Source: an uncultured Planctomycetota bacterium
GTDB taxonomy: Bacteria; Planctomycetota; Phycisphaerae; SM23-33
DNA length: 64,000 bases
Direction: 5' to 3'
Assembly (NCBI GenBank): GCA_903892515.1
Contig: CAITIS010000067.1
Span: forward strand, 1,347-65,346
The notes under the pieces were generated by a model. It saw nothing but the letters and a program-made list of their open reading frames with translations. It did no database searches and was not told where the DNA came from. The position numbers and the translations under genes are program-made. Positions 6,500 through 60,389 of this stretch are shown piece after piece. Position 1 is the stretch's first letter, and each line of letters begins with the position of its first letter.

Positions 6500-6790
6500 A
6501 TAAAGCGAGCGAAGTCGCGTTGCCTTAAGCCCGAAGGGCTTGGAGTCTAGCCCAGGGCAGAGCGAAGCGCCGCCCTGGGTTGGCAGGGATACATGTTAGC
6601 CCTGTAAGGGCGGGATAGCTCTGTCTCTGACGCCCTTTCAGGGCTTGCTTTTGTGACGCATGTTTACCTGGGGCGTTGCCCCAGGCTGTAGTCTCTCAGC
6701 CCTTCGGGCTGCATAGCCCAACGGTCCAGCGAGTCATCACAAATGCCTAATCATGCAAAAAGCCCGAGAGGCAGAGAAATCCCTACGTTG
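6500..6790. repeat. Dense array of GC-rich stem-loops (at least 6 hairpins with tetraloop-like loops) in a 370-bp intergenic region
   Basis: aagccc-gaag-ggctt; cccagggc-(13 nt)-gccctggg; gccct-gtaa-gggc; gccct-ttca-gggc; cctgggg-cgtt-gccccagg; cagccc-ttcg-ggctg. Confidence 0.55.
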
Positions 6791-8603: not shown

Positions 8604-9398
8604 ATGCCTCGAATTGCACGAATAGTGCTGCCAAACGTCCCTCACCTCGTCGGGCAGCGCGGCAACCGTGGCGAGAAGCTTTTCCCCGCCCCGGGCGACC
8701 GCGAGCTCTACCTTGAAATCCTCAACGAGAACCTCAAGGGCTGCGCGGTCAAGCTTTGGGCTTACCGGCTGGAGAATACCGAGGTCTTGCTGTTGCTGCA
8801 GCCGGCGGACCTGCACGGCATGGCCAAATGCCTGCGGAACGCCCACGGCCTGTATAGCCAGACCATCAACCGGCGAGTTACCGCCACAGGCCACCTCTTC
8901 CAGGGCCGGTTCTACAGTTGCCCCCTCGACGCCGAGTATGCGATGGAGGCGCTAAAGCACCTGGACCGCGCGACCGGCACCGCCCAGGCCTCGCGCCAGT
9001 GCCGCTTGCATCGTCTCGGCCAGCCGTCGGAAGGCCACGACGGAGTCTGCGCCTTCTGCGGCATGCTGGACGAGAGCATCCCCTACCCCAAGATGGCATC
9101 AGAACTGCCCCAGTGGCTCGCACGCCCGGCAGATCCGGCCATCGTGCGGGCTGTGCTGGGTCGGTTGCGCGTCGGCAAGCCTGCGGGCTCCCCCAGCTTC
9201 ATCAGGGAGGTCGAGGTGCTGACGGGGCTGAACCTGTCTCGCCGCCGCGGCCGGCCGAGAAAGCTGCTTGTGCAGGCGAGCGTGCCCGAAGTCATGCCGG
9301 CCAAGTCGCAGCCAGTCGTCGAAGTGCCGGAAACGCTGCCGACGGCGCCGCCTGTGGGCGTCTACATCGCACAGAATCCAAACGTGCCCATTTCGTGA
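8604..9398 (+). CDS. RAYT-like / IS200 (Y1 HUH-family) transposase homologue with degenerate HUH motif
   Basis: MPRIARIVLPNVPHLVGQRGNRGEKLF...YLEIL...AYRLENTEVLLLL...GHLFQGRFYS aligns to the RAYT/TnpA(IS200) N-terminus and Q-G-R-F block. The expected HvH is replaced by TEV. A REP hairpin lies 42 bp downstream. Confidence 0.65.
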   Translation: MPRIARIVLPNVPHLVGQRGNRGEKLFPAPGDRELYLEILNENLKGCAVKLWAYRLENTEVLLLLQPADLHGMAKCLRNAHGLYSQTINRRVTATGHLFQGRFYSCPLDAEYAMEALKHLDRATGTAQASRQCRLHRLGQPSEGHDGVCAFCGMLDESIPYPKMASELPQWLARPADPAIVRAVLGRLRVGKPAGSPSFIREVEVLTGLNLSRRRGRPRKLLVQASVPEVMPAKSQPVVEVPETLPTAPPVGVYIAQNPNVPIS

Positions 9399-9439: not shown

Positions 9440-9480
9440 GTGGCACAGCCGCCCTCGGCTGTGGATGTGGCGGTCATATC
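9440..9480 (+). repeat. REP-like palindromic element (family 1): GTGGCACAGCCG-CCCT-CGGCTGTGG plus conserved 3' flank
   Basis: 8-9 bp stem, 4-nt loop. Same 25-mer at 43089-43113 (+) and 17839-17863 (inverted). Extended flank conserved: aTGTgGCGGtCAtAT versus cTGTtGCGGcCAcAT. Confidence 0.75.
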
Positions 9481-14795: not shown

Positions 14796-15944
14796 GTGAG
14801 TTTACAGGACAATGCATTCATGCTCCAGGCCCTGGAGTTGGCGGCAATGGGCCGCGGCGCGGTCGAACCCAACCCGATGGTCGGCGCTGTCATCGTCAGA
14901 GATGGCGCCGTGCTGGGTGAGGGGTTCCATCACCGTTTCGGCGGGCCGCACGCGGAAGTCGAAGCCATCGCCGACGCTCGCCGGGCCGGGCATAACCTGG
15001 CCGGGGCCACCATGTACGTTACGCTGGAGCCCTGCTGCCATTACGGCAAGACGCCGCCCTGCACGCAGGCGGTCATCGCCTCGGGCGTCACCCGCGTGGT
15101 CGTGGCCATGCAGGATCCCGACGAGCGCGTGAGTGGCCAGGGCCTGGCTGAATTGCGCTCCGCCGGCATCGAGGTGGTCGCGGGCGTGCAGGAACAATCG
15201 GCCTGGCGACTGCTGGGGGCCTACATCAAGTTGCGGACAAAGCGTCGCCCCTGGGTCATCTGCAAGTGGGCCCAAAGCCTGGACGGCAAGATCGCCCCCG
15301 CCAGCCGACAGAGCAAGTGGATCACCGGCGAACTGGCCCGAGCGAGAGCCCATCAACTCCGCAGCCAGTGCCAGGGCGTATGCGTCGGTGTGGGAACCGT
15401 CCTGGCCGACGATCCCCTGCTGACCAACCGCAGCGGCGCAGGCCGACAGCCGACGCGGCTGGTGCTAGACGCAAGGCTGCGAACGCCGAGCGAGTCTCAA
15501 CTTCTCCGCACTGCCGGCGAAGTGCCCCTGATCGTGGCCACGGGCCCAGGGGCTTCGCCGGCCCAGGCCGACGCCATCCAACGCGCCGGTGGTGAGGTGC
15601 TAAGACTAAATGAGCAGGCCGGCGAACTTGACCTAGGACAGCTTCTGGATGAACTGGGCCGCCGGCAGTGGACGCGTCTGCTTGTCGAAGGCGGCCAGGC
15701 TGTGCTGCGGTCATTCTTGCGGCAGCAGTTGGCGGATGAACTGGCCATCTTCATTGCCCCGTGCATGATCGGTTCTGACGGGCTGAGCGTCATGGACTGG
15801 CTTCACGCCGAGCAGATGTCGCAGGCACTCCGCCTGCCGCTTGCGGAGACCGAACGACTGGGACCCGACCTGCTGCTGCGATTCCGGTTGGATGTAATTA
15901 GCAGGGATACATGGGATGCACGGGATGAAGAGATTTGTGATTGA
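14796..15944 (+). CDS. ribD: Bifunctional riboflavin biosynthesis protein RibD (pyrimidine deaminase / reductase)
   Basis: CDA zinc motif HAEVEAI...PCCHYGKTPPC. C-terminal RibD_C reductase domain. Confidence 0.9.
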   Translation: MSLQDNAFMLQALELAAMGRGAVEPNPMVGAVIVRDGAVLGEGFHHRFGGPHAEVEAIADARRAGHNLAGATMYVTLEPCCHYGKTPPCTQAVIASGVTRVVVAMQDPDERVSGQGLAELRSAGIEVVAGVQEQSAWRLLGAYIKLRTKRRPWVICKWAQSLDGKIAPASRQSKWITGELARARAHQLRSQCQGVCVGVGTVLADDPLLTNRSGAGRQPTRLVLDARLRTPSESQLLRTAGEVPLIVATGPGASPAQADAIQRAGGEVLRLNEQAGELDLGQLLDELGRRQWTRLLVEGGQAVLRSFLRQQLADELAIFIAPCMIGSDGLSVMDWLHAEQMSQALRLPLAETERLGPDLLLRFRLDVISRDTWDARDEEICD

Positions 15945-17098: not shown

Positions 17099-17235
17099 AG
17101 AGCTTGGCGACAGGAGCAGGCTTGAAACCATGCTACAGGTGCTGTAACCGTAGCACGGGCGTCTCGCCCGTGACCACCTGACGCCGGAATGAAGAAGCTC
17201 GTGGGCGAGACGCCCATGCTACGTTTGAAACTGCT

Positions 17236-17838: not shown

Positions 17839-17863
17839 CCACAGCCGAGGGCGGCTGTGCCAC
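17839..17863 (-). repeat. REP family-1 copy (inverted orientation)
   Basis: ccacagccgagggcggctgtgccac is the exact reverse complement of the 25-mer at 9440 and 43089. Confidence 0.75.
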
Positions 17864-42840: not shown

Positions 42841-42960
42841 TACGAAATTCAGACCCGAAGGGTCGGTACTACTGTAGCCGGGGGGCGTAAGCCCCCGGTG
42901 TGCATGGGCTTGTGCCTGAGCCCCGAAGGGGCGACACAGTTGGCTTGCCCAACAACTCTG
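42841..42960. repeat. GC-rich hairpin array (at least 4 stem-loops) preceding the family-4 and family-1 repeat copies
   Basis: gaccc-gaa-gggtc; ccggggg-gcgtaag-cccccgg; gcccc-gaa-ggggc; gcccc-gtc-ggggc. Confidence 0.5.
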
Positions 42961-42961
42961 T

Positions 42962-43045
42962 CGCCCCGTCGGGGCTCTGTGCCACTGGGGCGGTCTCCGT
43001 GGGCTCGCGCCCACGGCTACAATCGTTCCGGCCCTCCGGGCCTCC
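42962..43045. repeat. Family-4 hairpin element (intergenic copy; paralogue of the copy inside GT4 at 2869-2957)
   Basis: Shared 3' block ggctacaatcgttccggccctYcgggcctc. ccgtgggc-tcgc-gcccacgg. Confidence 0.6.
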
Positions 43046-43088
43046 AATCCAGTCGCAATGCCAAGACTCCATTCGTGCGGTTTGCCCC

Positions 43089-43130
43089 GTGGCACAGCCG
43101 CCCTCGGCTGTGGCTGTTGCGGCCACATCG
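43089..43130 (+). repeat. REP family-1 copy
   Basis: gtggcacagccgccctcggctgtgg plus conserved flank ctgttgcggccacat. Confidence 0.75.
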
Positions 43131-47623: not shown

Positions 47624-49693
47624 TTGGTAGCATTCGCCGCCATGAGCGACCAACTCTGGATCAATCGGCCTTTCAGCGTCATGGGGCACCTGTTTGACGT
47701 TCACCTGCTGCCCAAAGACCCCAGGGAACAGGTGGCCTTTAAGCGCGGACTGGGCTTTGACAGCGAGCACTGGCTGTCGAGCCTGTTCAAGACCGGCGGC
47801 GACGACGGCAAGCAGTGGCTGCTGAAGACCCGCTACGGCTGCGTCGAGGATCTCCTGAGGCCATACCTCAAGGCCGCCAAGGCCGAGGGGCTGAAGGTCA
47901 TCGTCTACGTCAACGCCCATTGGTACACCAGCGACTTTCCCGCCGAGATGCTGCTGCGCCGCGCCGACGGCTCAGCCGTCACCGGTTACGGCGCCGGCCT
48001 GCTGACCTGCCCAGGCGGGCCATTCCTGAAGTACATGCTGGACCTGGCGGAGGACTTGAGCGAGTATGCCATCGACGGCGTCTTTCTGGACGGCCCAATT
48101 GCCTCGCCGTGCTGGTGCGAGTCCTGCCGCAAGCAGTATCGCGAGCGGTTTGACGCGCACATGCCGGATCAGCCGCGGAATCTCCGCGAGCTGCGCAACG
48201 CTCACCACATGGCGGCTGACAACGTGGCGGAGTTCGTCGGAGCATTTCGCGACACGCTGCGGCGCAAGCAGCCCCAGGCGATCGTCTATCACAATGGCAC
48301 GACGCTGGGCTCGCTGACGTGGTCCAACCAGACCACGATCCGCCGCGCCGACCTGCTGGGCATCGAGGGCGGGTTTATCGGCTATAATCCGCTCAACAAA
48401 CAATTCCTGTATAAGACGGCCGCTACCGGCAAGCTCCTGGAAGCATTGGCCGATGGCAAGCCGGCTGTCATGTTCGACGACCACGCCTTCAAGGTCTACG
48501 ACTATACGCCGCACACGCCGGCGGAACTGGACCTGATGCTGCTGGGCACGCTGACGACCAACGCCAACCCGTGGTTTCTCATCTATTACAGCAACCGCGA
48601 TACGCACGCGCCGGCCGTGGCCAAGCGCTGGAACCAGTTGATCGCAGAGCATCGCGAGGATCGCGCCGACACGCACTCGGCGGAGGAGGCCGCCCTGCTG
48701 TGGTCCGACAGCATGCTGCTGGCCGCCCAGAATAAGGGGCTCAGCGAAGACTCCGTCCACGCCGACGCTTCGACCACGGCCAACCAGTTCGACGTCGACT
48801 ATCACGCTGCGTTCGACGGCGCGTACGAGATGCTAGCGCGATCGGCACTGCCCTTCCGCCTGGCCGTCGAGGACAAGTTGGCGGAGAATCTCAAGGGCGT
48901 AAAGGTGCTGGTGGCGCCCTCTTGTCTGGTGCTGTCGCAGTCGGCCTTCGAGAACGTCAAGGACTTCGTCCACCGCGGCGGCGTGCTGCTGGCGGATGAT
49001 CGCTTTGGGGCGTTCGATGAATTTGGCCAGGCCCGCGACGCCAAGGCCCTGCGCGAACTGCTGGGGCTGGAGTATGGGGCGGACATCCCGTTCGCACAGC
49101 GTGGCATTGATTACATCGCGTCGGATGAAAGCGACGTGCTGGCAGGCATCGCCAAGTCGCCCATTCCCCGGCCAACGCGGGCGGTGCAGGTCCGCCTGCA
49201 AGGCGCCAAGGCATTGGTGTATCTATATAAGCCTCTTACCGGCCGATACGACTACTTGACGGATGTTTCCGACGCACCGGCCGTCACGGAGCACGCCTTT
49301 GGCAAGGGCTTCGTCACGCTGCTGCCGATGAACCTGTTCGAGCATTACGGCCAGTGGCTCTTCGGCGAGCACCGCCAGTTCGTGGATAATCTGCTGCGCC
49401 GGCACTGGCGGCCAAGCGTGGAAGTCGAGGGCCTGCACCAGCGCGGCGAAGTAATGGTTCGGGCCAAGGACGGGGCCTTGCTGGTGAACCTGATAAACTA
49501 CAACGGCTTCCGCCGGCCTTTTGAATACATTCAGCCGCTCAATGATGTCCGCATCGTCGTCCGTGGCCACGAGGTCAAGACCGCCCACGGCCTGGTCGGC
49601 GGCCAAAGCTTGAAGATCGACCATCGCGGCGGCGACAGTGTTGTTCACCTGCCCGAACTGCGCGCCGGCGAAATGGTGATGATGCGGGTGTAA
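47624..49693 (+). CDS. Putative glycoside hydrolase-like protein (TIM-barrel GH-like domain plus C-terminal beta-galactosidase-trimerisation/GATase-like domain)
   Basis: 689-aa ORF with strong GC3 bias. GH42/GHL10-like organisation inferred loosely. Family uncertain. Confidence 0.5.
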   Translation: MVAFAAMSDQLWINRPFSVMGHLFDVHLLPKDPREQVAFKRGLGFDSEHWLSSLFKTGGDDGKQWLLKTRYGCVEDLLRPYLKAAKAEGLKVIVYVNAHWYTSDFPAEMLLRRADGSAVTGYGAGLLTCPGGPFLKYMLDLAEDLSEYAIDGVFLDGPIASPCWCESCRKQYRERFDAHMPDQPRNLRELRNAHHMAADNVAEFVGAFRDTLRRKQPQAIVYHNGTTLGSLTWSNQTTIRRADLLGIEGGFIGYNPLNKQFLYKTAATGKLLEALADGKPAVMFDDHAFKVYDYTPHTPAELDLMLLGTLTTNANPWFLIYYSNRDTHAPAVAKRWNQLIAEHREDRADTHSAEEAALLWSDSMLLAAQNKGLSEDSVHADASTTANQFDVDYHAAFDGAYEMLARSALPFRLAVEDKLAENLKGVKVLVAPSCLVLSQSAFENVKDFVHRGGVLLADDRFGAFDEFGQARDAKALRELLGLEYGADIPFAQRGIDYIASDESDVLAGIAKSPIPRPTRAVQVRLQGAKALVYLYKPLTGRYDYLTDVSDAPAVTEHAFGKGFVTLLPMNLFEHYGQWLFGEHRQFVDNLLRRHWRPSVEVEGLHQRGEVMVRAKDGALLVNLINYNGFRRPFEYIQPLNDVRIVVRGHEVKTAHGLVGGQSLKIDHRGGDSVVHLPELRAGEMVMMRV

Positions 49694-49717
49694 GCGGACT
49701 TATGTACGTTCCGGATG

Positions 49718-49766
49718 GTGGAACAGGCCTTCAGCCTGTTCGGCACAGCCTAAAAGGCTGTGCCAC
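49718..49766 (+). repeat. Twin-hairpin REP-like element (family 2), copy 1
   Basis: gtggaacaggc-cttca-gcctgttc + ggcacagcc-taaaa-ggctgtgcc + acc. Confidence 0.7.
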
Positions 49767-49795
49767 CGCCAAAGACTTATGTAGGGCCGCTTAGA

Positions 49796-50296
49796 CTAAA
49801 ACCTGTTGTACCGCACCACGTCCTTGAATTGCGGCTTCTCGGGACGCTTGGCGGCGACGGCCGGCTTGCCCACAGGCGTCAGCGCGATGACGCGCAGGGC
49901 TTCGGGCACGCCCAGCACGCCCTTGACGTAGCTTTCCTGCCGGCGGATCGCCCCTTCGATCCAGCAGCCGGCGTAGCCCAGGGCCACGATGGCCAGCAGC
50001 ATGTTCTCCATGGCTGCGGCCGCGTCCTGCTGCCAGAACTCGCCATGCGGCGTAGGCTTGGGATCGACCACCAGCACGACGGCCGCCGTGGCGCCGGTCA
50101 TCGCCTTGCTGACCGAGTCGAGCTTGGCCATGACGGCGGGATCGTCGACGATGATGTACTGTTTGAACTGGGCGTTGCAGCCCGTCGGGGCTTCGATGCC
50201 GGCCTGGACGATCCTATCCAGCACCGCGCGCGGCACCGGCTCGCTGGTGTATTGCCTGACGCTGCGACGACTGTTGATGACGTCAAAGAATTCCAT
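49796..50296 (-). CDS. Nitroreductase-family protein
   Basis: MEFFDVINSRRSVRQYTSEPV... (nitroreductase N-terminal signature). Confidence 0.8.
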   Translation of the reverse strand: MEFFDVINSRRSVRQYTSEPVPRAVLDRIVQAGIEAPTGCNAQFKQYIIVDDPAVMAKLDSVSKAMTGATAAVVLVVDPKPTPHGEFWQQDAAAAMENMLLAIVALGYAGCWIEGAIRRQESYVKGVLGVPEALRVIALTPVGKPAVAAKRPEKPQFKDVVRYNRF

Positions 50297-50357
50297 GTAA
50301 ACTCCCTTTCAAATCGGCCTGCTGGCGCAGCTTTCGAGCCGGCGTGAATGATATCCT

Positions 50358-50391
50358 CGCGTGGCCGCTGGACGCCGCGGCCACGGCACCC
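50358..50391 (+). repeat. Hairpin repeat (family 3), copy 1: cgcgtggccgc-tggacgc-cgcggccacggcaccc
   Basis: Identical 34-mer at 60247-60280. Confidence 0.7.
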
Positions 50392-50407
50392 GCGCTACAC
50401 GTTTGCC

Positions 50408-51088
50408 TCACACTGGAATCGCCGCGCCGGTGACCGCGTTGGCGGCGTCGGAAGCCAGAAACGCGATTACTTCGGCGATGTCCCGCGGCCTGGTCCACTT
50501 GGAAAAGTCGGCCTTGGGCATCGCCTGGCGATTGGCCGGCGTGTCGATCGTGCCGGGAAGAACGGCGTTGACGGTGATCATCTGCTCGGCCAATTCCTTG
50601 GCCAACGCGCCCGTCAAGGCCACCACAGCCGCCTTGGACGCGGCATAGCAGCTCATGCCCGACGCCGGCGCTGTCGCCCGCTGACTGGCGACGTTGATGA
50701 TCCGCCCGCCGCCCTGGCCTGTCATGAGCCTGGCCCCCTGCCGACAGCACAGCCAGCAGGTCCGCAGGTTCATCGAGAGCATCTTCTCCAGGTCGGCCAA
50801 GCTGCTTTGGGCGATGGGCCCAGACAGGAACCCGCCGGCCACATTGGCCACGATATCCAGCCGGCCATGGCGGTCGCGGACCTCCGCAAACACCCGTTCA
50901 ACCGCCGACTCGTCGGAGAGGTCCGCCTGGTGAAAGAAAACATTCACCCCGACGGCGTCCGGTTGGCCGTAATGGTAAATGCCGTGGACGATGGCCCCAT
51001 CGGCGACGAAGCGTTCGATGACGGCCCGGCCCAGGCTGCCGCCGGCGCCCGTGACGAACGATATCTTGTTTTCCAAGCTCGGACGCAT
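50408..51088 (-). CDS. SDR-family short-chain dehydrogenase/reductase
   Basis: ISFVTGAGGSLG (TGxxxGxG). YAASK catalytic motif. ATG at 51086-51088. Confidence 0.85.
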   Translation of the reverse strand: MRPSLENKISFVTGAGGSLGRAVIERFVADGAIVHGIYHYGQPDAVGVNVFFHQADLSDESAVERVFAEVRDRHGRLDIVANVAGGFLSGPIAQSSLADLEKMLSMNLRTCWLCCRQGARLMTGQGGGRIINVASQRATAPASGMSCYAASKAAVVALTGALAKELAEQMITVNAVLPGTIDTPANRQAMPKADFSKWTRPRDIAEVIAFLASDAANAVTGAAIPV

Positions 51089-51302
51089 AAGATAGTTGCT
51101 CCGTTGCGCCGGTGACTGTGCTTGCCCAGGCAAAGCCAGCATCGGCGGTGCGGCCAGGCCGCATTCAAGGTTGCGTGAGCTTGCGGCCTGAACGATTATC
51201 GGCTCGACCGGGTTGCGTAGGTCAGTAAACGTCTGGCCGCCCGCGAGTTGAGAAGACGAAAAGCTTTCAATCGCCGTCGGCGTTATCGTAAGATTTTAGG
51301 CA

Positions 51303-54300
51303 ATGAAGGTGGACTCAAGATTCCTCACCAGCCAGGGGCCGGAGATCTTTACCGGCAACGAACTGTTGGTCAAAGGCGCCCTGGAGGCCCAGGGCGGCAT
51401 GCATCTGCTGGGCGGCTACCCGGGCTCGCCCGTGGCGGGCTTCTTTGATGCGCTCTCCCAGATCAAAGACCTGCTTACCGAAAAGGGCATCCGCGCCGTC
51501 ATAAACAATAACGAGGCACTCTCCGGGGCCATGCTCAATGGCAGCCAGCTTCTGGGCTGCCGGGCAATGATCGTCATGAAGTCCGTGGGCGTGCACGTGG
51601 CCGCCGATGCGCTGGCGTTGGGCAACCTGGCCGGGGCGCATCCCGACGGCGGGGCCATCCTCGTCTGCGGCGACGATCCCTGGAGCGACTCCACCCAGGT
51701 GCCCGCCGACAGCCGGTACATCTGCAAGCACCTGCACATGCCCGTCATCGAGCCGGCCACGGCGCAGGACGTAAAGGACTACGTCGATCTGTCGCTGCGG
51801 GTTTCGCGAGAGGCCGAGTTGTACGCGGGCTATCTCATCACCACCAACCTCGCCGATGGCGGCGGCACCGTGCAATGCCGGCCTAACCAGTTTCCAACTT
51901 TCAGCACCCGCCAGCAGTTGGCGATGAAGACCGACGAGATCAACCTGAACAAATACGTCCTGCTGCCGCCGCGAACATGGTGGCAGGAGGCATCGCTGCC
52001 GGCGCGGTTTGCTCGCGCCATGGCCACCGCCCGGCGCACCGGCATGAACCAGCTGCTCTTTGGCGGCGGCGGGAAGAAGAAGCCGCTGGGCTTTGTCGCC
52101 AGCGGGCTGGCTTTTAGCTATCTTCAGCAAGCACTGGGCGAGATGGACCTGCTGGGCGAATTCCCCATCGTCAAGTTCGGCCTGAGCTATCCCATCGACC
52201 CGCAGATGGTGCGCGAGTTGGCGCAGCAGTGCGACCGCATCATCGTCGTGGAAGAGCGCCGCGGCTTCATGGAAGAGCAGATCGGCCAGGTCATTCTGCG
52301 CGACCGCCAGGAAGGCGCCGACACGGGCAATGTCGAGCTTTGGGGCAAGAAGTTTCCGGGCAACCTGCCGGGCTTCCCGGAACGGCTGGGCCTGCATCCC
52401 TCGCTCGTCATCGAGACGCTGGGCAGGTTGATGGATCATCTGGCCAAGCGCGGCCAGTTAGGCAGCTCCGGCGAAGCCTCCTCCAAGCGCGAGGTCGAGA
52501 GCATCCAGGCCACCGGTCGCGCCGAGTTCGGCGCCACCCCGCCACGGCTGCCCAGTTTCTGCCCCGGCTGCCCGCACCGCGACAGCGCCAGCCTGTGCCT
52601 GGAAATCAAGAAATCCTTCGCCGACGAACTCTACATGCGGCGGATGCACAAGCGTGGGGCCGTGGACCTGGTCTTCCACGGCGACACCGGCTGCTACACG
52701 ATGCTGATGTTCCCGCCCAACACGCCGCTGATGCACAATTATTCCGGCATGGGGCTGGGCGCCGGCACCGGCTCGGGCATCGACCCGTTCGTCACCAACA
52801 AGCAAGTCGTCTTCATGGGCGACTCGACCTTCTTCCACTCCGGCCAGATCGGGATTTCGCAGGCCATCAAGCTGGGCCAGGACATCACCTTCATCATCCT
52901 GGACAACCGCACCACGGCCATGACGGGCCACCAGCCCACCCCGGGCGTCGACTACGACATTCTGGGCAACTCCACGGCCGCTCAGAGCATCGACGACATC
53001 GTCCGCGGCATGAGCATCGATGGCACCTTGCCAGTGGTGCGCGTCTCGCCGGAACGACGAACCGAGTACCGCCGGCTGCTGGAGCAGACGTTTCTCTCCG
53101 ACGGCGTGAAGATCATCATCGCCGACAAGGAGTGCGGCATCACGCGCACACGGCGGCGGCGCAGGGCCGAGCGGCAGGTCATCCGCAACACGGGATTCCT
53201 TCCCGCCTGGGAGCACATGAATGTCAACCAGGACATCTGTAACTTCTGCCTGGACTGTTCGCGGCTGACCGGCTGCCCTGGCCTTAAGCACGTCCAGACC
53301 GACTACGGCCTGAAGACCGACACCGACCTGACCTGGTGCGTCAACGACGGCGCGTGCGAACGCATCGGCAGTTGCTCGGCCTTCGAGCACGTGACGATCA
53401 AGCGCAAGGCCGCCCCGCGATCCAGGGTTCCCGAACTGAACCTCGACGCGATTCCCGAACCGGCCCTGCCGCCCATGCCCGAAAGCGGGCTGTGGCGCTG
53501 CTGCCTGGTGGGCGTGGGCGGCATGGGCATCGGCCTGGCCACACAGGTGCTGGTCCGCGCCGGCCACAAGCAAGGCCTGGAGGTCACCTTCTACGACAAG
53601 AAGGGCCTGGCCATTCGCAACGGCGGCACTATCAGCCACGTGACTTACGCCTCTGGCTCGACCAAGCCCGTGACAGCGGTGATTCCCTTCGGCAAGGCTG
53701 ACCTGCTGCTGGGCATGGACGTGCTGGAGGCCGCCAGGGCTGTCGATCCCGAATCGCGCAGCCGGATCGCTTCGCCCGAGCGAACCGCCGCGGTCATCAA
53801 CACCGATAAAATTTCGACCATCAGCGGGCTCATCAATGGCCGGGACTTTGACGTCGAAGGGCTCGACCAGGTTATTCGGCGGCACACCCGGCCCAACGAG
53901 ACGTTCACGCGCAACATTGGCCGGCTGTGCGAAAAGTATCTCGGCAACAAGCTGTACACGAACATCATGCTGCTGGGGCTGGCCTTCCAGAAAGGCCTGA
54001 TCCCCGTTTCGCTGCACTCGATGGCCTGGGCCATCAAGGACACCATCAAGGCCGACTTCCGCAAGAACATGTATGCGTTCAACATTGGGCGCAAGCTCAT
54101 GGTCGAGCCGGCGCTCTTCCAAGGCCCGCCCAAGCGCACCGGCTGGCGCGAGACCCTGGAAGACAAGTGCCGCCACACGATCCGCCGCTACGGACGCGGG
54201 CAGGTCATGGCCGAGTCGCTGCGACAGATGGCGGCCGAAGTGGTCGGCAGGATGGACACGCTGGATGAGTCCGTCAAACGCGACGTGATCGTTCGCCTGT

Positions 54301-56048
54301 ACGACTGCATGCGCTGGGGCGGCCTGGAGTACGCCCGGCGCTACGCCGACGCCATCGCGTCCGTCCACGAGCAGGAAACCCGCGGCATCGTCACCTGCGG
54401 CTTAGAGCAGTACGGCGCCAAGCTGCCGGCCACGCGGGCCGTCATCGACAACTTGGCCAAAGCGATGCTCATCAAGGACATCGTTTTCATCGCCGAGCTG
54501 GCCACCAGCCCCGAAAAGTACGCCCGCGACCGCGAGAAGTACAACGTCAACCCGCCCTCGGGCGACCGCATCGTGTATCGCCACCTGCTGCACCCCGACA
54601 TTCACCTGTTCGGCAAGACCTTCCGTCCCAGCTTGATCGCCCCGCACTGGGTGATGCAACTGGCCAAGCGGATGACGTTCCTGCGCAAGGGCAGGAACTG
54701 GCGGCGGCGCGAGCGCGAGTTCCTGGCCCTGTACGAGCAGCGGATCGCCAACTTCCACTTCGGCAGCGTCGAGCAGTATCACCAGGCCGTCGCCCGCCTG
54801 TCCGAGCCGCAGTGCATGCAGTGCCTGACGCCGCACTGCCAGGACCAAGGCTGCCCACTGCACAGCGAGATCGACGGCTGGATGGAACTGGCTCGCCAGG
54901 GCAAGTGGAAAGAGGCCTCCGACCTGCTGCACAAGTACAACAACTTCCCCGAGTTCACGGCCTACATCTGCCCGGCGGCGTGCGAGTCGGCGTGCCGGCA
55001 GGCATTGAGCGGGTATCCCGTGCGCATTCAGAAGGTCGAGCGAGAGATCATCGAGCGGGCTTGGCAGGACGGCTTCGTGCAGCCTCAGCGGCCGACGGAA
55101 AAGACCGGCAAGAAGGTCGCTGTCATCGGCTCAGGCCCAGCCGGCTTGGCGGCAGCGCAACAACTGGTTCGGCGCGGACACCAGGTCGTCGTGTATGAAA
55201 AGGACTCTCAGCCTGGCGGGCTGTTGCGCTACGGCGTGCCGGAATTCCGCCTGCCCAAGAAGATGCTCGACCGCCGCTTGGAACAGATGATTTCCGAAGG
55301 CGTCAATTTCGAGGTCGGGCTGGCCATCGGCAAGGACACGCCGCTGGGCGAACTGCGGAAGCAGTACGATGCGGTGTTGCTGGCCGGCGGAGCGGCCAGG
55401 CCGAGGGATCTGCGCGTCGCGGGCCGGGAGAATAGCTCAGCCGTGCAGTACGCCATGGACTTCCTGCGGCAGGCCAACCTGGCCGTCGCGGGCAAGACCG
55501 ATGCCAAGACCACCTCGGCCGCCGGCAGGACCGTCGCGGTCATCGGCGGCGGCGAGACCGGCAACGACTGCGTGGAGATGGCCCTGTCGCAAGGGGCCAA
55601 GAAGGTCTACCAGCTCGAGATCATGCCCGCGTCCAATGGCCAGGCGGCCAGCGACCTGGAGGGCAGGATCGAGCGGCGTTGGTGCGTGGCCACCACGCAG
55701 ATCCATTCCAACGGCCAGGGCGTCCGGCTGTCGGGCGTGCAGGTTCGTTGGCTGTTCACGGCGGCTGGGCGGCAACACGTCCAAACGCCCGGCACGGAGT
55801 TTGAACTCAGCGCCGACCTGGTGCTGCTGGCCCTGGGCTTCGACGCCCCCGCCGATCCGGCCATGGTGGAACAACTGGGCCTAAAGACCGACGAGGCCGG
55901 GCGGCTCGTCGTCAACGAATTCTCGACCAGCGCTGCCGGCGTGTTCGTGGCCGGCGATCTGGCCTCAGGCGCCAGCTTAGTGGCAAAGGCCATCGACTCA
56001 GGCCGAAGAGCGGCCGAGCACGTCGATCAGTTTCTGCGGCGGGCGTAG
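51303..56048 (+). CDS. Fusion protein: indolepyruvate/2-oxoacid:ferredoxin oxidoreductase (IorA+IorB-like, TPP and 4Fe-4S) fused to a GltD-like NAD(P)H-dependent FAD/Fe-S oxidoreductase domain
   Basis: Residues 1-~1160: GYPGSPV..., TPP motif GDTGCYTM...GDSTFFHSG, ferredoxin CNFCLDC...CPG / CVNDGACERIGSC, IorB-like GVGGMGIG. Residues ~1165-1581: CMQCLTPHCQDQGCP...NNFPEFTAYICPAACESAC...KKVAVIGSGPAGLAAAQQL...LLRYGVPEFRLPK...AVIGGGETGNDCV (GltD/NfnB/SudA family). Confidence 0.85.
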   Translation: MKVDSRFLTSQGPEIFTGNELLVKGALEAQGGMHLLGGYPGSPVAGFFDALSQIKDLLTEKGIRAVINNNEALSGAMLNGSQLLGCRAMIVMKSVGVHVAADALALGNLAGAHPDGGAILVCGDDPWSDSTQVPADSRYICKHLHMPVIEPATAQDVKDYVDLSLRVSREAELYAGYLITTNLADGGGTVQCRPNQFPTFSTRQQLAMKTDEINLNKYVLLPPRTWWQEASLPARFARAMATARRTGMNQLLFGGGGKKKPLGFVASGLAFSYLQQALGEMDLLGEFPIVKFGLSYPIDPQMVRELAQQCDRIIVVEERRGFMEEQIGQVILRDRQEGADTGNVELWGKKFPGNLPGFPERLGLHPSLVIETLGRLMDHLAKRGQLGSSGEASSKREVESIQATGRAEFGATPPRLPSFCPGCPHRDSASLCLEIKKSFADELYMRRMHKRGAVDLVFHGDTGCYTMLMFPPNTPLMHNYSGMGLGAGTGSGIDPFVTNKQVVFMGDSTFFHSGQIGISQAIKLGQDITFIILDNRTTAMTGHQPTPGVDYDILGNSTAAQSIDDIVRGMSIDGTLPVVRVSPERRTEYRRLLEQTFLSDGVKIIIADKECGITRTRRRRRAERQVIRNTGFLPAWEHMNVNQDICNFCLDCSRLTGCPGLKHVQTDYGLKTDTDLTWCVNDGACERIGSCSAFEHVTIKRKAAPRSRVPELNLDAIPEPALPPMPESGLWRCCLVGVGGMGIGLATQVLVRAGHKQGLEVTFYDKKGLAIRNGGTISHVTYASGSTKPVTAVIPFGKADLLLGMDVLEAARAVDPESRSRIASPERTAAVINTDKISTISGLINGRDFDVEGLDQVIRRHTRPNETFTRNIGRLCEKYLGNKLYTNIMLLGLAFQKGLIPVSLHSMAWAIKDTIKADFRKNMYAFNIGRKLMVEPALFQGPPKRTGWRETLEDKCRHTIRRYGRGQVMAESLRQMAAEVVGRMDTLDESVKRDVIVRLYDCMRWGGLEYARRYADAIASVHEQETRGIVTCGLEQYGAKLPATRAVIDNLAKAMLIKDIVFIAELATSPEKYARDREKYNVNPPSGDRIVYRHLLHPDIHLFGKTFRPSLIAPHWVMQLAKRMTFLRKGRNWRRREREFLALYEQRIANFHFGSVEQYHQAVARLSEPQCMQCLTPHCQDQGCPLHSEIDGWMELARQGKWKEASDLLHKYNNFPEFTAYICPAACESACRQALSGYPVRIQKVEREIIERAWQDGFVQPQRPTEKTGKKVAVIGSGPAGLAAAQQLVRRGHQVVVYEKDSQPGGLLRYGVPEFRLPKKMLDRRLEQMISEGVNFEVGLAIGKDTPLGELRKQYDAVLLAGGAARPRDLRVAGRENSSAVQYAMDFLRQANLAVAGKTDAKTTSAAGRTVAVIGGGETGNDCVEMALSQGAKKVYQLEIMPASNGQAASDLEGRIERRWCVATTQIHSNGQGVRLSGVQVRWLFTAAGRQHVQTPGTEFELSADLVLLALGFDAPADPAMVEQLGLKTDEAGRLVVNEFSTSAAGVFVAGDLASGASLVAKAIDSGRRAAEHVDQFLRRA

Positions 56049-56171
56049 CGGACGCCACGGGTGCGGCGCATGCGCCGTGCCGCAGCGGGCACACGCCACA
56101 GTCTGGCATCGCGTGCAACAAGAGCGGCCTCACTTCTTCCCAAAGCCTGTTCGCACTCCTATCCTGTTGAT

Positions 56172-56825
56172 ATGCCCACAGAACCTCAGCCGCAGCGAAA
56201 GACGCGCACAGCCAGGATTATCGCCCTGCTGAAGAAGCGGTTCCCTGACGCCAAGATCGCCCTGAACTTCTCCAACCCATTGGAATTGCTGGTGGCGACG
56301 ATCCTGTCGGCGCAGTGCACCGACGTGCGGGTCAACGTGGTCACGCCGGCGCTGTTCAAGAAGTACCGCTGGGCCCGGGACTTCGCCCGCGCCGATTTGG
56401 AGACGCTGCAAGAGGAAGTCCGCAGCACGGGCTTCTTTCGCAACAAGGCCAAGAGCATCAAGTCGGCTGCGACGCGGATCGTCGAGGCATACGACGGCCA
56501 GGTGCCCGAGACGATGGAAGAGCTGCTGACGCTCTCGGGCGTCGCCCGCAAGACGGCCAATGTGGTACTGGGCAACGCCTTCGGCAAGAACGAGGGCGTG
56601 GTGGTGGATACGCACGTCCGTCGCCTGTCGCAGCGGCTTGGTCTGACGAAGCACGACGACCCCGAGAAGATCGAGCAGGATCTCATGCAACTCGTGCCGC
56701 GCAGGCAATGGGCCGACTTCGCCCACCTGATGATCTTTCATGGCCGGAACATCTGCTTCGCCCGCAAGCCAAACTGCGCCGAATGCCCGCTGAACAAGCT
56801 CTGCCCCTCGGCCTTCAAGGTTTGA
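56172..56825 (+). CDS. nth: Endonuclease III
   Basis: HhH-GPD (LTLSGVARKTANVVLG). FCL CxxxxxxCxxC...C cluster (CFARKPNCAECPLNKLC). ATG at 56172 inside the longer listed ORF. Confidence 0.9.
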   Translation: MPTEPQPQRKTRTARIIALLKKRFPDAKIALNFSNPLELLVATILSAQCTDVRVNVVTPALFKKYRWARDFARADLETLQEEVRSTGFFRNKAKSIKSAATRIVEAYDGQVPETMEELLTLSGVARKTANVVLGNAFGKNEGVVVDTHVRRLSQRLGLTKHDDPEKIEQDLMQLVPRRQWADFAHLMIFHGRNICFARKPNCAECPLNKLCPSAFKV

Positions 56826-56836
56826 GGGCAAAGAAC

Positions 56837-56946
56837 TTTAGCAGGGATGCTGGGGATACAGGGGATGAAGGCATTTCGGTTCAACGCATGTACGGAACTG
56901 CATTTATAAAGCAATGTCTTTATCCCATGCATCCCCAGCATCCCTG
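56837..56946. repeat. 20-bp perfect inverted repeat (ttagcagggatgctggggat ... atccccagcatccctgctaa) flanking a ~70-bp AT-richer core, between nth (+) and the VOC gene (-)
   Basis: Observed directly. Could be a long-stem terminator or a MITE-like element. Confidence 0.5.
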
Positions 56947-56953
56947 CTAACAC

Positions 56954-57397
56954 CTATTTGTTTTCCAACAGTTCCAGCACGAGCTTGAGTTTCTTGGTGG
57001 CGTCCACGTAGGCGTACTGGCCGCCGGTGTAGTCGCCGCGCTGGACGGTCGGGCAGCCTTGGCTGTCCAGTTGGGCCAGCGTGTTGTCCATGCCGCTGAC
57101 CATGAAGGCGATGTGGTGCATGCCTTCGCCCCTTGAGTCCAGCACTTCCTGCCACGTGCTGGGGCCGCCGATGGGCTCGATAAGTTCCAGCACGACCTGG
57201 CCCATGTTGAAGAACGCCAGCTTCGCCCGGCCTTCGGTCGGCTTGCCGTGGTAGCGCGTGTGGGCTTTTTCCAACGGGTCGGTGATGACGACCTCCGGCA
57301 CGGCCAGGCCGAAGATTTCGGCGTAGTCGCGGGCGGTCTTTTCGATGTCCTTCACGACGACGGCGACTTGGCAGACGATGTTGTTTCCGACAGGCAT
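56954..57397 (-). CDS. VOC/glyoxalase-family protein (methylmalonyl-CoA epimerase-like)
   Basis: Two betaalphabetabetabeta modules with H/E metal ligands (HHIAFMV...E). Confidence 0.7.
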   Translation of the reverse strand: MPVGNNIVCQVAVVVKDIEKTARDYAEIFGLAVPEVVITDPLEKAHTRYHGKPTEGRAKLAFFNMGQVVLELIEPIGGPSTWQEVLDSRGEGMHHIAFMVSGMDNTLAQLDSQGCPTVQRGDYTGGQYAYVDATKKLKLVLELLENK

Positions 57398-57545
57398 TGG
57401 TGGCTCCGAAAAGTTTGGTCGTTACCGGCTTTAACGCCCGTCAGCATCACGGAAAGATCGCGATTTCGCAAGCGGCGGCTGGGAATTCCTGAGGCCAAAC
57501 CGACTTTCCTTTGACTTGCCTGGCTAGGCCCTCGTAAATGATTCA

Positions 57546-58604
57546 ATGGCGTTACAAGTTCCACCACTGTTGATCGGCAGCATTCGCGTCGACCCGCCGG
57601 GCATTCTGGCCTCGCTGGCGGGGTACACCGACCTGCCCTACCGGCTGCTGTGCCGCAGCCTGGACGCCACTTTTTGCGCCACCGAAATGATGCTGGACCG
57701 TCAGCTCCTGCTGCCTGGCCGGCTGCGAAATCGGCTGGTGCACACCGACCCGGCCGATCATCCCGTCAGCGGCCAGATCATCGGCAACGATCCGGCCGTC
57801 ATGGCCAAGGCGGCCGTCGAGCTGCAAAAGTGCGGCTTTGATGCGGTGGATATGAACTTTGCCTGCCCGGTGCGCAAGGTTCTCCAGCGTCACCGGGGCG
57901 GCTACCTGATGCAGGATTGCGACAAGACGCTCGAAATCATCCGGGCGGTCACGGCCTCCGTCAGCATTCCCGTTACGGTCAAGATTCGCATGGGCTTCGC
58001 CGCCACCGATGTCGGCAGCGAGCATTTCTGGGCCATTGCCGAGGGCGGCTTTGACGCCGGCCTGGCGGGGCTGATCATCCACGCCCGCACCGTCGAGCAG
58101 CGTTACACCGGCAAGGCCGACTGGGAGTTCCTGGCCAAGGTCAAGCAGCACTTTGCGGACAAGGTGATCGTCGGCTCGGGCGACGTGACAGGACCGGCCG
58201 CCGCCGAGCGGATGCTGCAAGAGACGGGCGTCAACGGCGTTAGCTTTGCCCGCGCGGCCTTGGGGAACCCGTGGATATTCCGCCAGTTCGCCGACCAACT
58301 CGCCGGCAGGCCGCTGTACAAGCCGGGCCTGGCGGAACAGCGTGAGCGGTTGCGGCGGCACTTTGAGTCCGTGGTGGAGCTGTACGGCGTCCGGCGCGGG
58401 CCCAAGATGATGCGCAAATTCGGCATCAAGTACGCCCGGCTGCACCCGACGCCCGGCAAGGTCCGCGCCGCCTTCATCGGCGTCCGCACCGGTTCGCAGT
58501 GGCGGGCCATTCTGGATGAGTTCTACAGTGACGACTTCGATGCCTCAGCCATCACCGACGCGCCGGGCATCACGACCGAGGACGACGTTTCGGAGGAAGA
58601 ATGA
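57546..58604 (+). CDS. dus: tRNA-dihydrouridine synthase
   Basis: LAGYTDLPYRLLCR...FDAVDMNFACPVRKV...KIRMG (Dus FMN TIM-barrel). Confidence 0.85.
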   Translation: MALQVPPLLIGSIRVDPPGILASLAGYTDLPYRLLCRSLDATFCATEMMLDRQLLLPGRLRNRLVHTDPADHPVSGQIIGNDPAVMAKAAVELQKCGFDAVDMNFACPVRKVLQRHRGGYLMQDCDKTLEIIRAVTASVSIPVTVKIRMGFAATDVGSEHFWAIAEGGFDAGLAGLIIHARTVEQRYTGKADWEFLAKVKQHFADKVIVGSGDVTGPAAAERMLQETGVNGVSFARAALGNPWIFRQFADQLAGRPLYKPGLAEQRERLRRHFESVVELYGVRRGPKMMRKFGIKYARLHPTPGKVRAAFIGVRTGSQWRAILDEFYSDDFDASAITDAPGITTEDDVSEEE

Positions 58605-60217
58605 TGACTCGACCGATGTTGCTGGCCATGGCCTGCCTGTTGCCTTCCCTGCTGGCCGCACAGACCGCCACGGTGCCCTCGCGGCTGAACGTTTCGCCCG
58701 CTGTGAGCACACCCGCTGCGCCGGCATCGAGCCGGGCCGTGGCGACTTCGCGAGTGGCCACGTCGCTTCCGGCCAGCGTGCCGACTTCACGGGCGTCATC
58801 GGACAAGCAGGTGCAGTACTACGTCCTGCTGCTCAACGCTAAGAAGGTGGGATATCTCGTTCACAAGCGGCAGGTCGAGGGCGAGAAGGTCACCACCACC
58901 GAGATGCTCGAAATCACCATGAGCCGGAGCAAGACCCCCGTCACGATCACGGAAAAGGACATCTGCGTTGAGTCCTCCGACGGCACGCCGCTGTCGTTTC
59001 AGACCTTCCAGTCTTTAGGCGGTGCGACGCAGCAGGTCGAGGGCACGGTCGAAGGCGGCAAGATTCGCCTGCTGCTCAACTCTGGAACCGCGCAGACGCG
59101 GCAGGAAATGCCTTGGCCGCAAGGCGCGATGATGCCTGAGGGGCTTCGGCTCTTGCAGCTTTCCAAAGGCCTGGCCGAGGGCACGAGCTACGCTGTCCGC
59201 TCCTTCCTGCCTTCGAGCCTGACGGCCATCGACACGCAGGTTACCGTCGGCAAGAAGGTCGATGTGGACGTGCTGGGGCAGAAGATCCAGGCGTGGGAAA
59301 TCAAGGACGTGAGCGAGAGCATCGCCGGCGGGCTGAGCATGACCAGCTACGTCAATGACGAGATGGACATTCTCCGCAGTTCCATGCCGATGGCGGGGCT
59401 GAAGGTCGAGGTCGTGGCCGCGACGCGGGCCATCGCCCTGGCGAGGCCTGAAGTCTTCGAGGCCTTCGACTCGCTGGCTGTGGCCAGTCCCAGCCCGCTG
59501 CCAATCACTAAGGAGACGCCCTCGGCCACGTATGTGCTCCAGGCCGAGAAGGACCAGAAGCTTTCGCTCGTGGAGTCGGATTACCAGTCGGTGCGCTACG
59601 ACGAAGCCGCCGGCGTCAGCACCGTCACGGTCAGGAACGCCAAGCCCGAAGGCGATTACTACCTGCCCTACCAGGAGCAGGACGCCGAGGCCCTCAAGGC
59701 AATGGGCCCCTCACGCTACCTCCAGAGCGACGATGAGACGGTCCGGCAACTGGCGGAGCAGGCCGTTGGCGAGACCGCGCTGGCTTCGGAAGCGGCGGCC
59801 AAGCTGGAGGCGTTCGTCGCCCAGTACATCACCAAGAAGGATCTCTCTGTGGGGTACGCATCGGCCGCTGACGTAGCCAGGGGCCGCGAGGGCGACTGCA
59901 CCGAGCACGCCGTGCTGCTGGCGGCCATGTGCCGGGCGGTGGGCTTGCCGGCCCGCGTGTCCTGCGGCGTGGTGTATGTGCCGACCTGGCAGCAGAAGAA
60001 GGACGTATTCCTGCCGCACGCGTGGGTGGAGGCGTACATCGGCAAGGAGTGGGTTTGCCTGGATGCGGCCTTGCACGGTTTCGACGTGGGCCACATCGCC
60101 TTTTGCCACGGCGATGGCAACCCCGAGAGCTTTTTCGGCATCATCAACACGCTGGGCAACTTCAAGATCGTATCAGCCAGCGTGGAGAAAACGGCCAGTT
60201 CGGAGCCGGCGCAGTGA
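58601..60217 (+). CDS. Secreted transglutaminase-like cysteine protease superfamily protein
   Basis: Signal peptide plus Thr/Ser/Pro-rich linker. C-terminal GDCTEHAVLLAAMCRAVGLPARV...HAWVEAYIG...CLDAALH (Cys-His-Asp core). Confidence 0.7.
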   Translation: MMTRPMLLAMACLLPSLLAAQTATVPSRLNVSPAVSTPAAPASSRAVATSRVATSLPASVPTSRASSDKQVQYYVLLLNAKKVGYLVHKRQVEGEKVTTTEMLEITMSRSKTPVTITEKDICVESSDGTPLSFQTFQSLGGATQQVEGTVEGGKIRLLLNSGTAQTRQEMPWPQGAMMPEGLRLLQLSKGLAEGTSYAVRSFLPSSLTAIDTQVTVGKKVDVDVLGQKIQAWEIKDVSESIAGGLSMTSYVNDEMDILRSSMPMAGLKVEVVAATRAIALARPEVFEAFDSLAVASPSPLPITKETPSATYVLQAEKDQKLSLVESDYQSVRYDEAAGVSTVTVRNAKPEGDYYLPYQEQDAEALKAMGPSRYLQSDDETVRQLAEQAVGETALASEAAAKLEAFVAQYITKKDLSVGYASAADVARGREGDCTEHAVLLAAMCRAVGLPARVSCGVVYVPTWQQKKDVFLPHAWVEAYIGKEWVCLDAALHGFDVGHIAFCHGDGNPESFFGIINTLGNFKIVSASVEKTASSEPAQ

Positions 60218-60246
60218 AGCATGCGTCACGCAGCCGGTAGATGTTA

Positions 60247-60341
60247 ATCGCGTGGCCGCTGGACGCCGCGGCCACGGCACCCGGCGTCACGTGGTGGCAC
60301 AGCCTTTCAGGCTGTGCCGCACAGGCTAAAAGCCTGTGCCA
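60247..60341 (+). repeat. Composite repeat: family-3 hairpin (60247-60280) directly followed by a family-2 twin hairpin (60292-60341)
   Basis: cgcgtggccgctggacgccgcggccacggcaccc ... gtggcacagcc-tttca-ggctgtgcc + gcacaggc-taaaa-gcctgtgc + cacc. Confidence 0.7.
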
Positions 60342-60389
60342 CCTCACCCAGAAACTACAAAAGTTTCCTTAGCTGGACCGCGAGTTCGT

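Follow-up and report, generated by a model that had tools for sequence, protein, structure and literature searches.

In Pseudomonas fluorescens SBW25, two inverted repetitive extragenic palindrome (REP) units reportedly behave as one repeat, the REP doublet forming hairpin (REPIN) attributed to Bertels and Rainey in 2011, with many extragenic copies that a REP-associated tyrosine transposase (RAYT) is thought to move. These REPINs are said to have longer spacers than the element described below and a proposed fold of one long hairpin. The REPs of Nunvar et al. (2010; PMC2817692) consist of a GT(A/G)G head and a palindrome. The group-3 REPs are 23 nt in length with a tetranucleotide tag, an 8-bp perfect palindrome and a 3-nt loop, and they are recognized and processed as folded single-stranded DNA in a strand-specific manner (Corneloup et al., 2021; PMC8266576). 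Di Nocera et al. (2013; PMC3733652) describe dimers in head-to-head arrangement with 1-5 bp between the units, heterodimers whose stems differ, a GTGG variant (GTAG-20), REP dimers inside longer palindromes, hosts in the Planctomycetes-Verrucomicrobia-Chlamydiae (PVC) phyla, sites between convergent open reading frames (ORFs) and in-frame intragenic copies in Opitutus terrae, and they propose RNA roles for many REPs. REPIN-RAYT systems have been described as lineage-specific (10.1101/2021.07.10.451892). Here we analyzed a 64,000-nt stretch of DNA (the window) from an uncultured Planctomycetota bacterium (assembly GCA_903892515.1, contig CAITIS010000067.1, positions 1,347 to 65,346), which carries two copies, A and B, of a twin-hairpin repeat of approximately 51 nt. 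We consider it fairly likely that each twin hairpin represents two GT(A/G)G-tagged REP units in a head-to-head doublet, non-autonomous and spread by a trans-acting enzyme of the HUH/Y1 type.

Each REP unit of the twin hairpin consists of a 5' GTGG tag, a perfect stem of 8-10 bp and a 3-nt loop. The second unit lies on the opposite strand 1-3 nt away, so that the tags face outward (GGTGG...CCACC), and in this lineage the doublet is a heterodimer with one ACAGGC stem (hairpin Y) and one ACAGCC stem (hairpin X). Copy A reads GGTGG-A-ACAGGC-CTTCA-GCCTGT-T-CG-GCACAGCC-TAAAA-GGCTGTGCCACC with the 3' end GGCTGT-GCCACC, and can be parsed into GGTGG, the Y hairpin GAACAGGC-CTTCA-GCCTGTTC, the X hairpin GGCACAGCCT-AAA-AGGCTGTGCC, and ACC. 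Copy B reads GGTGG-C-ACAGCC-TTTCA-GGCTGT-GCC-GCACAGGC-TAAAA-GCCTGTGC-CACC with the 3' end GCCTGT-GC-CACC, parsed into GGTGG, GGCACAGCCT-TTC-AGGCTGTGCC, GCACAGGCT-AAA-AGCCTGTGC, and CACC. Both copies fold into two adjacent hairpins plus a short closing stem GGTGG/CCACC, with z-scores of -6.5 and -6.4 (A and B) on the plus strand and -4.5 to -5.3 on the other strand. The twin hairpins occur far above chance: the pattern ACAGSC-N4-8-GSCTGT is found seven times in the window (0.11 expected) and GGCACAGCC eight times (1.5 expected). Copy A is flanked by a convergent pair of genes, GH42-like and nitroreductase, and copy B by another, transglutaminase-like and MiaB-like radical-SAM. An earlier note on this DNA had described the shared architecture of the two copies, and its sequences are borne out as described. 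It had also named assembly duplication as a possible artifact; this does not apply, since A and B differ at 7-9 positions, lie in unlike flanks, and copy A recurs unchanged in four metagenome assemblies that represent this organism independently. Homologues of proteins encoded in the window suggest Planctomycetota/Phycisphaerae. The coordinates of all features are collected in Table 1.

Table 1. REP-type elements, associated modules and the Y1-transposase homologue in the window
Feature	Position	Strand	Description
Twin-hairpin copy A	49717-49767		polarity Y then X on + strand; covariance-model score 63.9 bits, fold, subfamily alignments
Twin-hairpin copy B	60293-60343		inverted, X then Y on + strand; 67.5 bits, fold, polarity evidence
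Composite element around copy A	49691-49793		103 nt; outer imperfect palindrome with arms TAAGCGG...CCGCTTA; recurs at other loci
Diverged remnant of Y-side outer arm	60344-60372		adjoins copy B; 19/27 identity, 15/2000 shuffles as good
Family-3 hairpin	60248-60283	+	CGTGGCCGC-TGGACGCC-GCGGCCACG + GCACCCG; 36/36 identical to the second copy
Family-3 hairpin, second copy	50357-50392	+	between SDR gene stop and nitroreductase start
Single REP unit	9440-9463	+	GTGG + CACAGCCG-CCCT-CGGCTGTG; 42 nt downstream of the RAYT-like gene
Single REP unit, same sequence type	43089-43112	+	downstream of ArsP-like permease gene
Single REP unit, same type	17840-17863	-	downstream of Hsp20 gene
Sister-type REP doublet	17150-17222		GTAG-CACGGGCG-TCT-CGCCCGTG, 27-nt spacer, CGTGGGCG-AGA-CGCCCATG-CTAC; 27.9 bits
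RAYT/TIRYT-like Y1-transposase homologue (Y1_Tnp superfamily)	8604-9398	+	without HUH motif and catalytic Tyr

The twin hairpin has the short palindrome of the REP superfamily (20-40 nt, a stem of 6-13 bp and a short loop), GT(A/G)G at one hairpin foot, here as GTGG before each unit, and inverted dimers that include heterodimers. It is closest to the GTAG-17, -19, and -20 REPs of O. terrae and Planctomycetes. As PMC3733652 describes these, they are alike in a perfect hairpin that is short, has a loop of 2-3 nt and bears an unpaired tag, in head-to-head dimers 1-5 bp apart, in heterodimers with alternative complementary stem residues, in PVC hosts, in in-frame intragenic copies, and in a location between convergent ORFs. 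The ACAGGC/ACAGCC core was not found in that text or its supplements, including the intragenic peptide list (Figure 1 of that paper lay outside the comparison), and the peptides listed there imply an ACGGGC-type core, one compensated transition away from ACAGGC. The window doublet may nevertheless be identical with one of the families of that paper. A literature search for the exact hairpin strings found no paper. The group-3 REPs of Stenotrophomonas maltophilia and Marinomonas (PMC8266576) are alike in the unit of approximately 23 nt and differ in stem sequence and hosts. The SBW25 REPINs share the use of two inverted REP units as one repeat unit. They differ from the window type in that here the spacer is 1-3 nt, covariation favors two separate hairpins over a single long one, no flanking cognate RAYT was found in the window or in the flanks of related doublets, and the core occurs in many phyla instead of being lineage-specific.

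Next, we compared the two copies in both orientations. The earlier note had explained the exchange of acaggc and acagcc between A and B as compensatory substitutions. The twin-hairpin element is nearly its own reverse complement, and A and B match at 46 of 53 positions when one of them is reverse-complemented, as against 44 of 53 in direct alignment. A subfamily alignment (n = 11) was built from copies A and B and nine relatives, four of which come from one Planctomycetaceae metagenome-assembled genome (MAG) in the genome scan and five from JGI contigs in the metagenome scan. All nine relatives have one polarity, with GAACAGGC-TTTCA as the first hairpin and GGCACAGCC-TGAAA as the second, and after reverse-complementing B the G/C positions are invariant in 11 of 11 sequences. 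The right flank of B is also identical to the reverse complement of the left arm of A at 19 of 27 positions, a match equaled in 15 of 2000 shuffles; comparison of the B flank with the A arms in direct orientation gave nothing significant. The shared polarity of the relatives and the flank homology thus indicate that A and B are inverted relative to each other, one heterodimer inserted in opposite orientations, and that the apparent G/C swap is an effect of orientation in a near-self-complementary element. The inversion, as seen in the alignment, the polarity of the 11 members and the flank, rules out the direct A-B alignment as proof of compensatory change. Between A and B a true double change is confined to the second pair of the ACAGGC (GAACAGGC) stem, from A:T to C:G; for this pair one related locus, L089, has a C..T intermediate. 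The TAAAA second loop common to A and B is a coincidence of two different loop transitions: in A, as in L132, TGAAA became TAAAA, and in B the opposite strand went from TTTCA to TTTTA. A claim of compensatory evolution in near-palindromic repeats first requires their comparison in both orientations.

The wider family was collected by a genome scan with one genome per species, using the pattern ACAGSC-N5-GSCTGT-N5-ACAGSC-N5-GSCTGT, for which less than one chance match is expected by simple arithmetic. It returned at least 113 doublet loci in MAGs labeled as at least 10 phyla. Among the matches listed, approximately 50 are from Desulfobacterota, 28 from Planctomycetota and 12 from Verrucomicrobiota, the others being from Acidobacteriota, Schekmanbacteria, Hydrogenedentota, Nitrospinota, Kiritimatiellota, Lentisphaerota, Chloroflexota, and Methylomirabilota; several MAGs have at least 6-11 doublets each among these matches. 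The subfamily pattern was found in only five contigs of the JGI metagenomes, a plasmid collection gave partial single-hairpin matches only, and viral contigs gave one match. In the flanks of the loci 115 doublets were counted vs. 32 single units. The first loop has the form N-TCY-N' and the second N-RGA-N', its complement class, and the two units of the doublet are therefore inverted. The tags across the family are GTGG, GTAG or GGAG, the last of which is outside the published consensus, and both the tags and the stem-foot pairs vary with lineage.

Since the search pattern fixes five of the eight pairs in each hairpin, only the free positions are informative for covariation. In a two-hairpin model of 108 doublets, 96.8% of the cells are paired overall (98-99% of the hairpin cells), and the covariation score is 0.341 vs. 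0.082 for shuffles, none of 500 reaching it; slid registers score no higher than 0.09. The S position is G:C or C:G in 107 of 108 doublets in one hairpin and in all 108 in the other. The loop-closing pair occurs in all four Watson-Crick types (UA 41, AU 33, GC 22, CG 8, unpaired 4), and the stem-foot pair is CG, GC or AU. A single long hairpin of the REPIN style is rejected by the pair counts: the long-hairpin model has 86.7% paired cells and a score of 0.168, and the positions that discriminate between the two models are only 20-80% paired in it (for example 15:41 in 34 of 108), compared with 92-100% in the two-hairpin model. The covariation of head and tail (GGTGG/CCACC, GGGAG/CTCCC, GTAGG/CCTAC) could equally reflect two units carrying one tag. 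The view of the earlier note that these are structure-constrained hairpin repeats therefore holds for a family of the REP kind, and the alignment and covariance model that it had proposed reveal covariation beyond shuffles. The paired changes on which it had based its argument exist at the level of the wider family, and the argument falls for the comparison of A with B.

Covariation alone is no proof of selection on an RNA. It is possible that the doublet is primarily an RNA element, a two-hairpin cap at the 3' ends of both convergent transcripts that blocks 3' exonucleases or terminates transcription without a U-tract; the cap would be the same on both transcripts because the element is alike on both strands, and such a role need not exclude a REP origin. 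Copies A and B and the doublet at 17150 all lie between convergent genes, 25-50 nt from the stop codons, the covariance model scores the element equally on both strands, the RNA folds are strong (z of approximately -6.5), and RNA roles for many REPs are proposed in the text of Di Nocera et al. (PMC3733652). On the other hand, the hairpins of A and B have no T/U run behind them on either strand, and no site resembling an intrinsic terminator was found at either copy. The stems have almost no G:T or G:U pairs (0-1 of 108 for each pair), although G:U is usual in structured RNAs, and this near-absence fits a constraint at the level of DNA or of both strands as opposed to a single RNA. Some family copies lie in frame within coding regions, where a terminator would be lethal; they are incompatible with a termination role. 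The twin hairpin also matches no Rfam family, as a search of Rfam 15 gave no match at gathering level and relaxed thresholds gave only chance-level matches to miRNA-type hairpins. We regard a primary RNA role as unlikely.

Alternatively, the hairpins might be neither mobile nor RNA elements and instead serve as double-stranded binding sites of a conserved host protein, with template-switch correction of quasi-palindromes during replication keeping their symmetry perfect. A model for such binding is provided by the bacterial interspersed mosaic elements (BIMEs) of E. coli, to which gyrase, IHF and Pol I bind. MAGs of at least 10 phyla agree in the 12-nt core ACAGGC/GCCTGT and in the TCY triloop, a conservation beyond structural need, and wobble pairs are absent. 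However, part of the core conservation is an effect of ascertainment, because the search pattern fixed the core, and the loop-closing and stem-foot pairs vary freely through Watson-Crick types yet stay paired, which fits a demand for pairing better than base-specific contacts. Many copies per genome together with in-frame copies in unrelated genes also argue for spread by copying, and a host-protein origin appears quite improbable to us.

Doublets are depleted from open frames: 34 of 106 (32%) are spanned by one, compared with 67% of random positions. Five in-frame doublets nevertheless add 17-19 codons inside conserved domains (L015:484, L064:4146, L081:742, L025:4176, and L093:581). Their hosts are two Ser/Thr kinases, one with the insertion in the activation loop between DFG and APE, a D-Ala-D-Ala ligase (Ddl), an AroD-AroE protein and a GH94 protein, all from Planctomycetota and Acidobacteriota MAGs; the usual peptide is GGTG..PV.HR.DACAT. 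Such copies in real genes point to mobility. By family resemblance to described REPs, we propose that the doublets would be non-autonomous elements whose hairpins, folded in single-stranded DNA, would be copied in trans by an enzyme of the HUH/Y1 (RAYT) type whose gene lies elsewhere in the genome. Copies would persist where the harm is small, mostly just downstream of genes. Pairing would be kept since only copies that fold are recognized and propagated, possibly with the help of templated correction of quasi-palindromes, and transcribed copies may secondarily serve as RNA hairpins at 3' ends.

Several observations weigh against such enzyme-driven spread. A search through nitroreductase homologues gave neither an orthologous empty site nor a presence/absence polymorphism, synteny not being conserved. 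The sole Y1-like gene in the window is devoid of both HUH and Tyr, and only its 3' side carries a REP. Its orthologues located beside the phosphoenolpyruvate carboxykinase (PEPCK) gene have no ACAGSC hairpins nearby, nor do three HUH-intact homologues of the protein, and in 754 kb of sequence flanking the doublets we found just one or two weak RAYT-like ORFs and no cognate RAYT. The sharing of one core across phyla is also at odds with the lineage specificity described for REPIN-RAYT systems (10.1101/2021.07.10.451892); it is the only mildly surprising aspect of the family, and ascertainment through the search pattern accounts for part of it.

The RAYT-like protein itself belongs to a clade of 22 protein clusters (relatives P0002-P0024 and L120-L122) in which NHVH is replaced by a conserved xxEV and Y..NP by Y/H..F(T/A)G; the window protein has lost the Tyr as well. 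Distant relatives carry the gene as a single copy in synteny, beside PEPCK or near rnpA. According to a 2018 survey (PMC6006769), all classes keep HuH and Y. The clade looks like a catalytically dead, exapted transposase, and the gene at 8604-9398 is probably not the mobilizing enzyme. The proposed association of the repeats with this gene proved to be weak and was rejected, given the missing HUH and Tyr, the hairpin-free orthologues and HUH-intact homologues, and the near absence of RAYT-like genes beside the at least 113 doublets. With considerable doubt, this conserved HUH-less protein, encoded beside a REP, could also be an exapted hairpin-binding protein. One of the weak RAYT-like ORFs in the doublet flanks, at locus L117 (4940-5400), is small and HUH-intact and is associated with a different REP (GTAGGGGCGGGTTTCAAACCCGCCC), one copy of which overlaps the 3' end of the ORF and a second of which is apparently inside it (peptide AGLKPAPT).

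The twin hairpins are combined with other modules, as the earlier note had recognized: outer arms surround copy A, and a hairpin of another type, family-3, lies 8-9 nt from copy B. The first three bases of the composite around A, TAA, are the stop codon of the upstream GH42-like gene. A 99-101-nt version of this composite is present at the non-orthologous loci L128/L129 and L130/L131, and L132, where the contig ends inside the element, has the twin hairpin and one arm only. The DNA fold z-score of the composite is -6.2 in the window and -8.5 in L130. Copy A could in principle be a conventional MITE (a miniature inverted-repeat transposable element), whereby a DDE transposase that duplicates TA moved the 103-nt composite with the twin hairpin as internal cargo. 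With its arms conserved, the composite does recur at no fewer than three non-orthologous loci, and copy A and L128-L131 carry imperfect inverted arms of approximately 25-30 nt with TA at both ends. Since this TA belongs to the terminal palindrome, a target duplication cannot be scored from it. These arms are missing in copy B and in the large majority of the family, neither empty arms nor a transposase with matching ends was found, and REP dimers nested in longer palindromes are already described in the text of PMC3733652. We consider a MITE origin of copy A very unlikely. The direct repeat GACTTATGTA around copy A was likewise rejected as a target-site duplication, because it is part of the outer arms conserved at other loci.

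Copy B retains only the arm beside its ACAGGC hairpin; on the other side, ending 8-9 nt upstream of B at the expected place of the X-side arm, is the family-3 hairpin. The fold of family-3 (50357-50392) is no better than that of shuffled sequences (z = -1.3), and no third copy was found in any other locus of the collection except contigs of the same organism. The half-site GTGG-CACAGCC was correctly noted as common to the twin hairpins and the single REP beside the RAYT-like gene. Its suggested extension to all hairpin families is valid for the twin hairpins and the single REPs (9440, 17840, and 43089), which carry GGCACAGCC, and fails for family-3, from which GGCACAGCC is absent. Modular arrangements are also found in other hosts. 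Desulfobacterota doublets with GGGAGC tags are nested between long C-rich/G-rich inverted arms, CCCCTCCCCCAACCCC ... GGGGTTGGGGGAGGGG (for example L079:5040-5180), forming much larger composite palindromes (loci among L007-L119), and L105 contains a BIME-like tandem cluster of doublets with a period of 80 nt. The outer arms around A, family-3 by B, the Desulfobacterota arms and the L105 cluster all resemble E. coli BIMEs, in which REP units of alternating orientation are combined with other conserved modules. They differ from BIMEs in unit sequence, in twin-hairpin units without bulged stems, and in unrelated accompanying modules.

In total, the 64-kb window contains six REP-type elements, all extragenic and all downstream of a gene. 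The three single units have the GTGG tag on one side only. A window search with the covariance model of the family detected A and B at 64-68 bits and, in addition, the doublet at 17150-17222. The latter lies between convergent genes, upstream of smpB, and has a DNA fold z-score of -5.3; its core lies one compensated transition from ACAGGC and is similar to the one that the O. terrae GTAG-19 peptides listed in PMC3733652 imply. Among the remaining repeats, the Acido-Lenti-1 RNA (RF01687) is present twice on the plus strand at the Rfam gathering score, at 2910-2956 (44.5 bits) and 42997-43043 (37.6 bits), the second copy within a dense cluster of further hairpin repeats (42860-43130). It is like the twin hairpin in being a short two-hairpin repeat, is unrelated to it in sequence, and is an instance of such a repeat being catalogued as a candidate structured RNA. 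A four-copy family of direct repeats, TTAGCAGGGATRC...GGGATGAAG (1891-1929, 6580-6618, 15898-15936, and 56838-56876), is unrelated to the hairpins. Internal repeats of approximately 225 nt (four to five copies, 60-93% identity, 11678-14022) in the minus-strand ORF 11611-14130 probably encode a repetitive protein domain.

For this window the finding is largely ordinary: the elements are ordinary selfish or semi-domesticated palindromic repeats at harmless sites, and by architecture the twin hairpins are an addition to the already known superfamily of GTAG-tagged REPs. A bolder reading, which we offer with considerable doubt, is that the ACAGGC-N-TCY-N'-GCCTGT doublet would be one coherent REP family of at least 10 phyla (among them PVC, Desulfobacterota, Acidobacteriota, Nitrospinota, and Schekmanbacteria), with no RAYT beside it and with in-frame copies in essential genes. 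If REP-RAYT pairs are truly lineage-specific, this breadth would imply an unrecognized widespread or horizontally moving enzyme, or a conserved host factor that constrains the core. In poorly studied phyla, hairpins of this type are very widespread; they swell the number of "hypothetical protein" calls and are able to insert into real genes. With a covariance model of the doublet, annotation could be cleaned up, and the enzyme that spreads it might be easier to locate.

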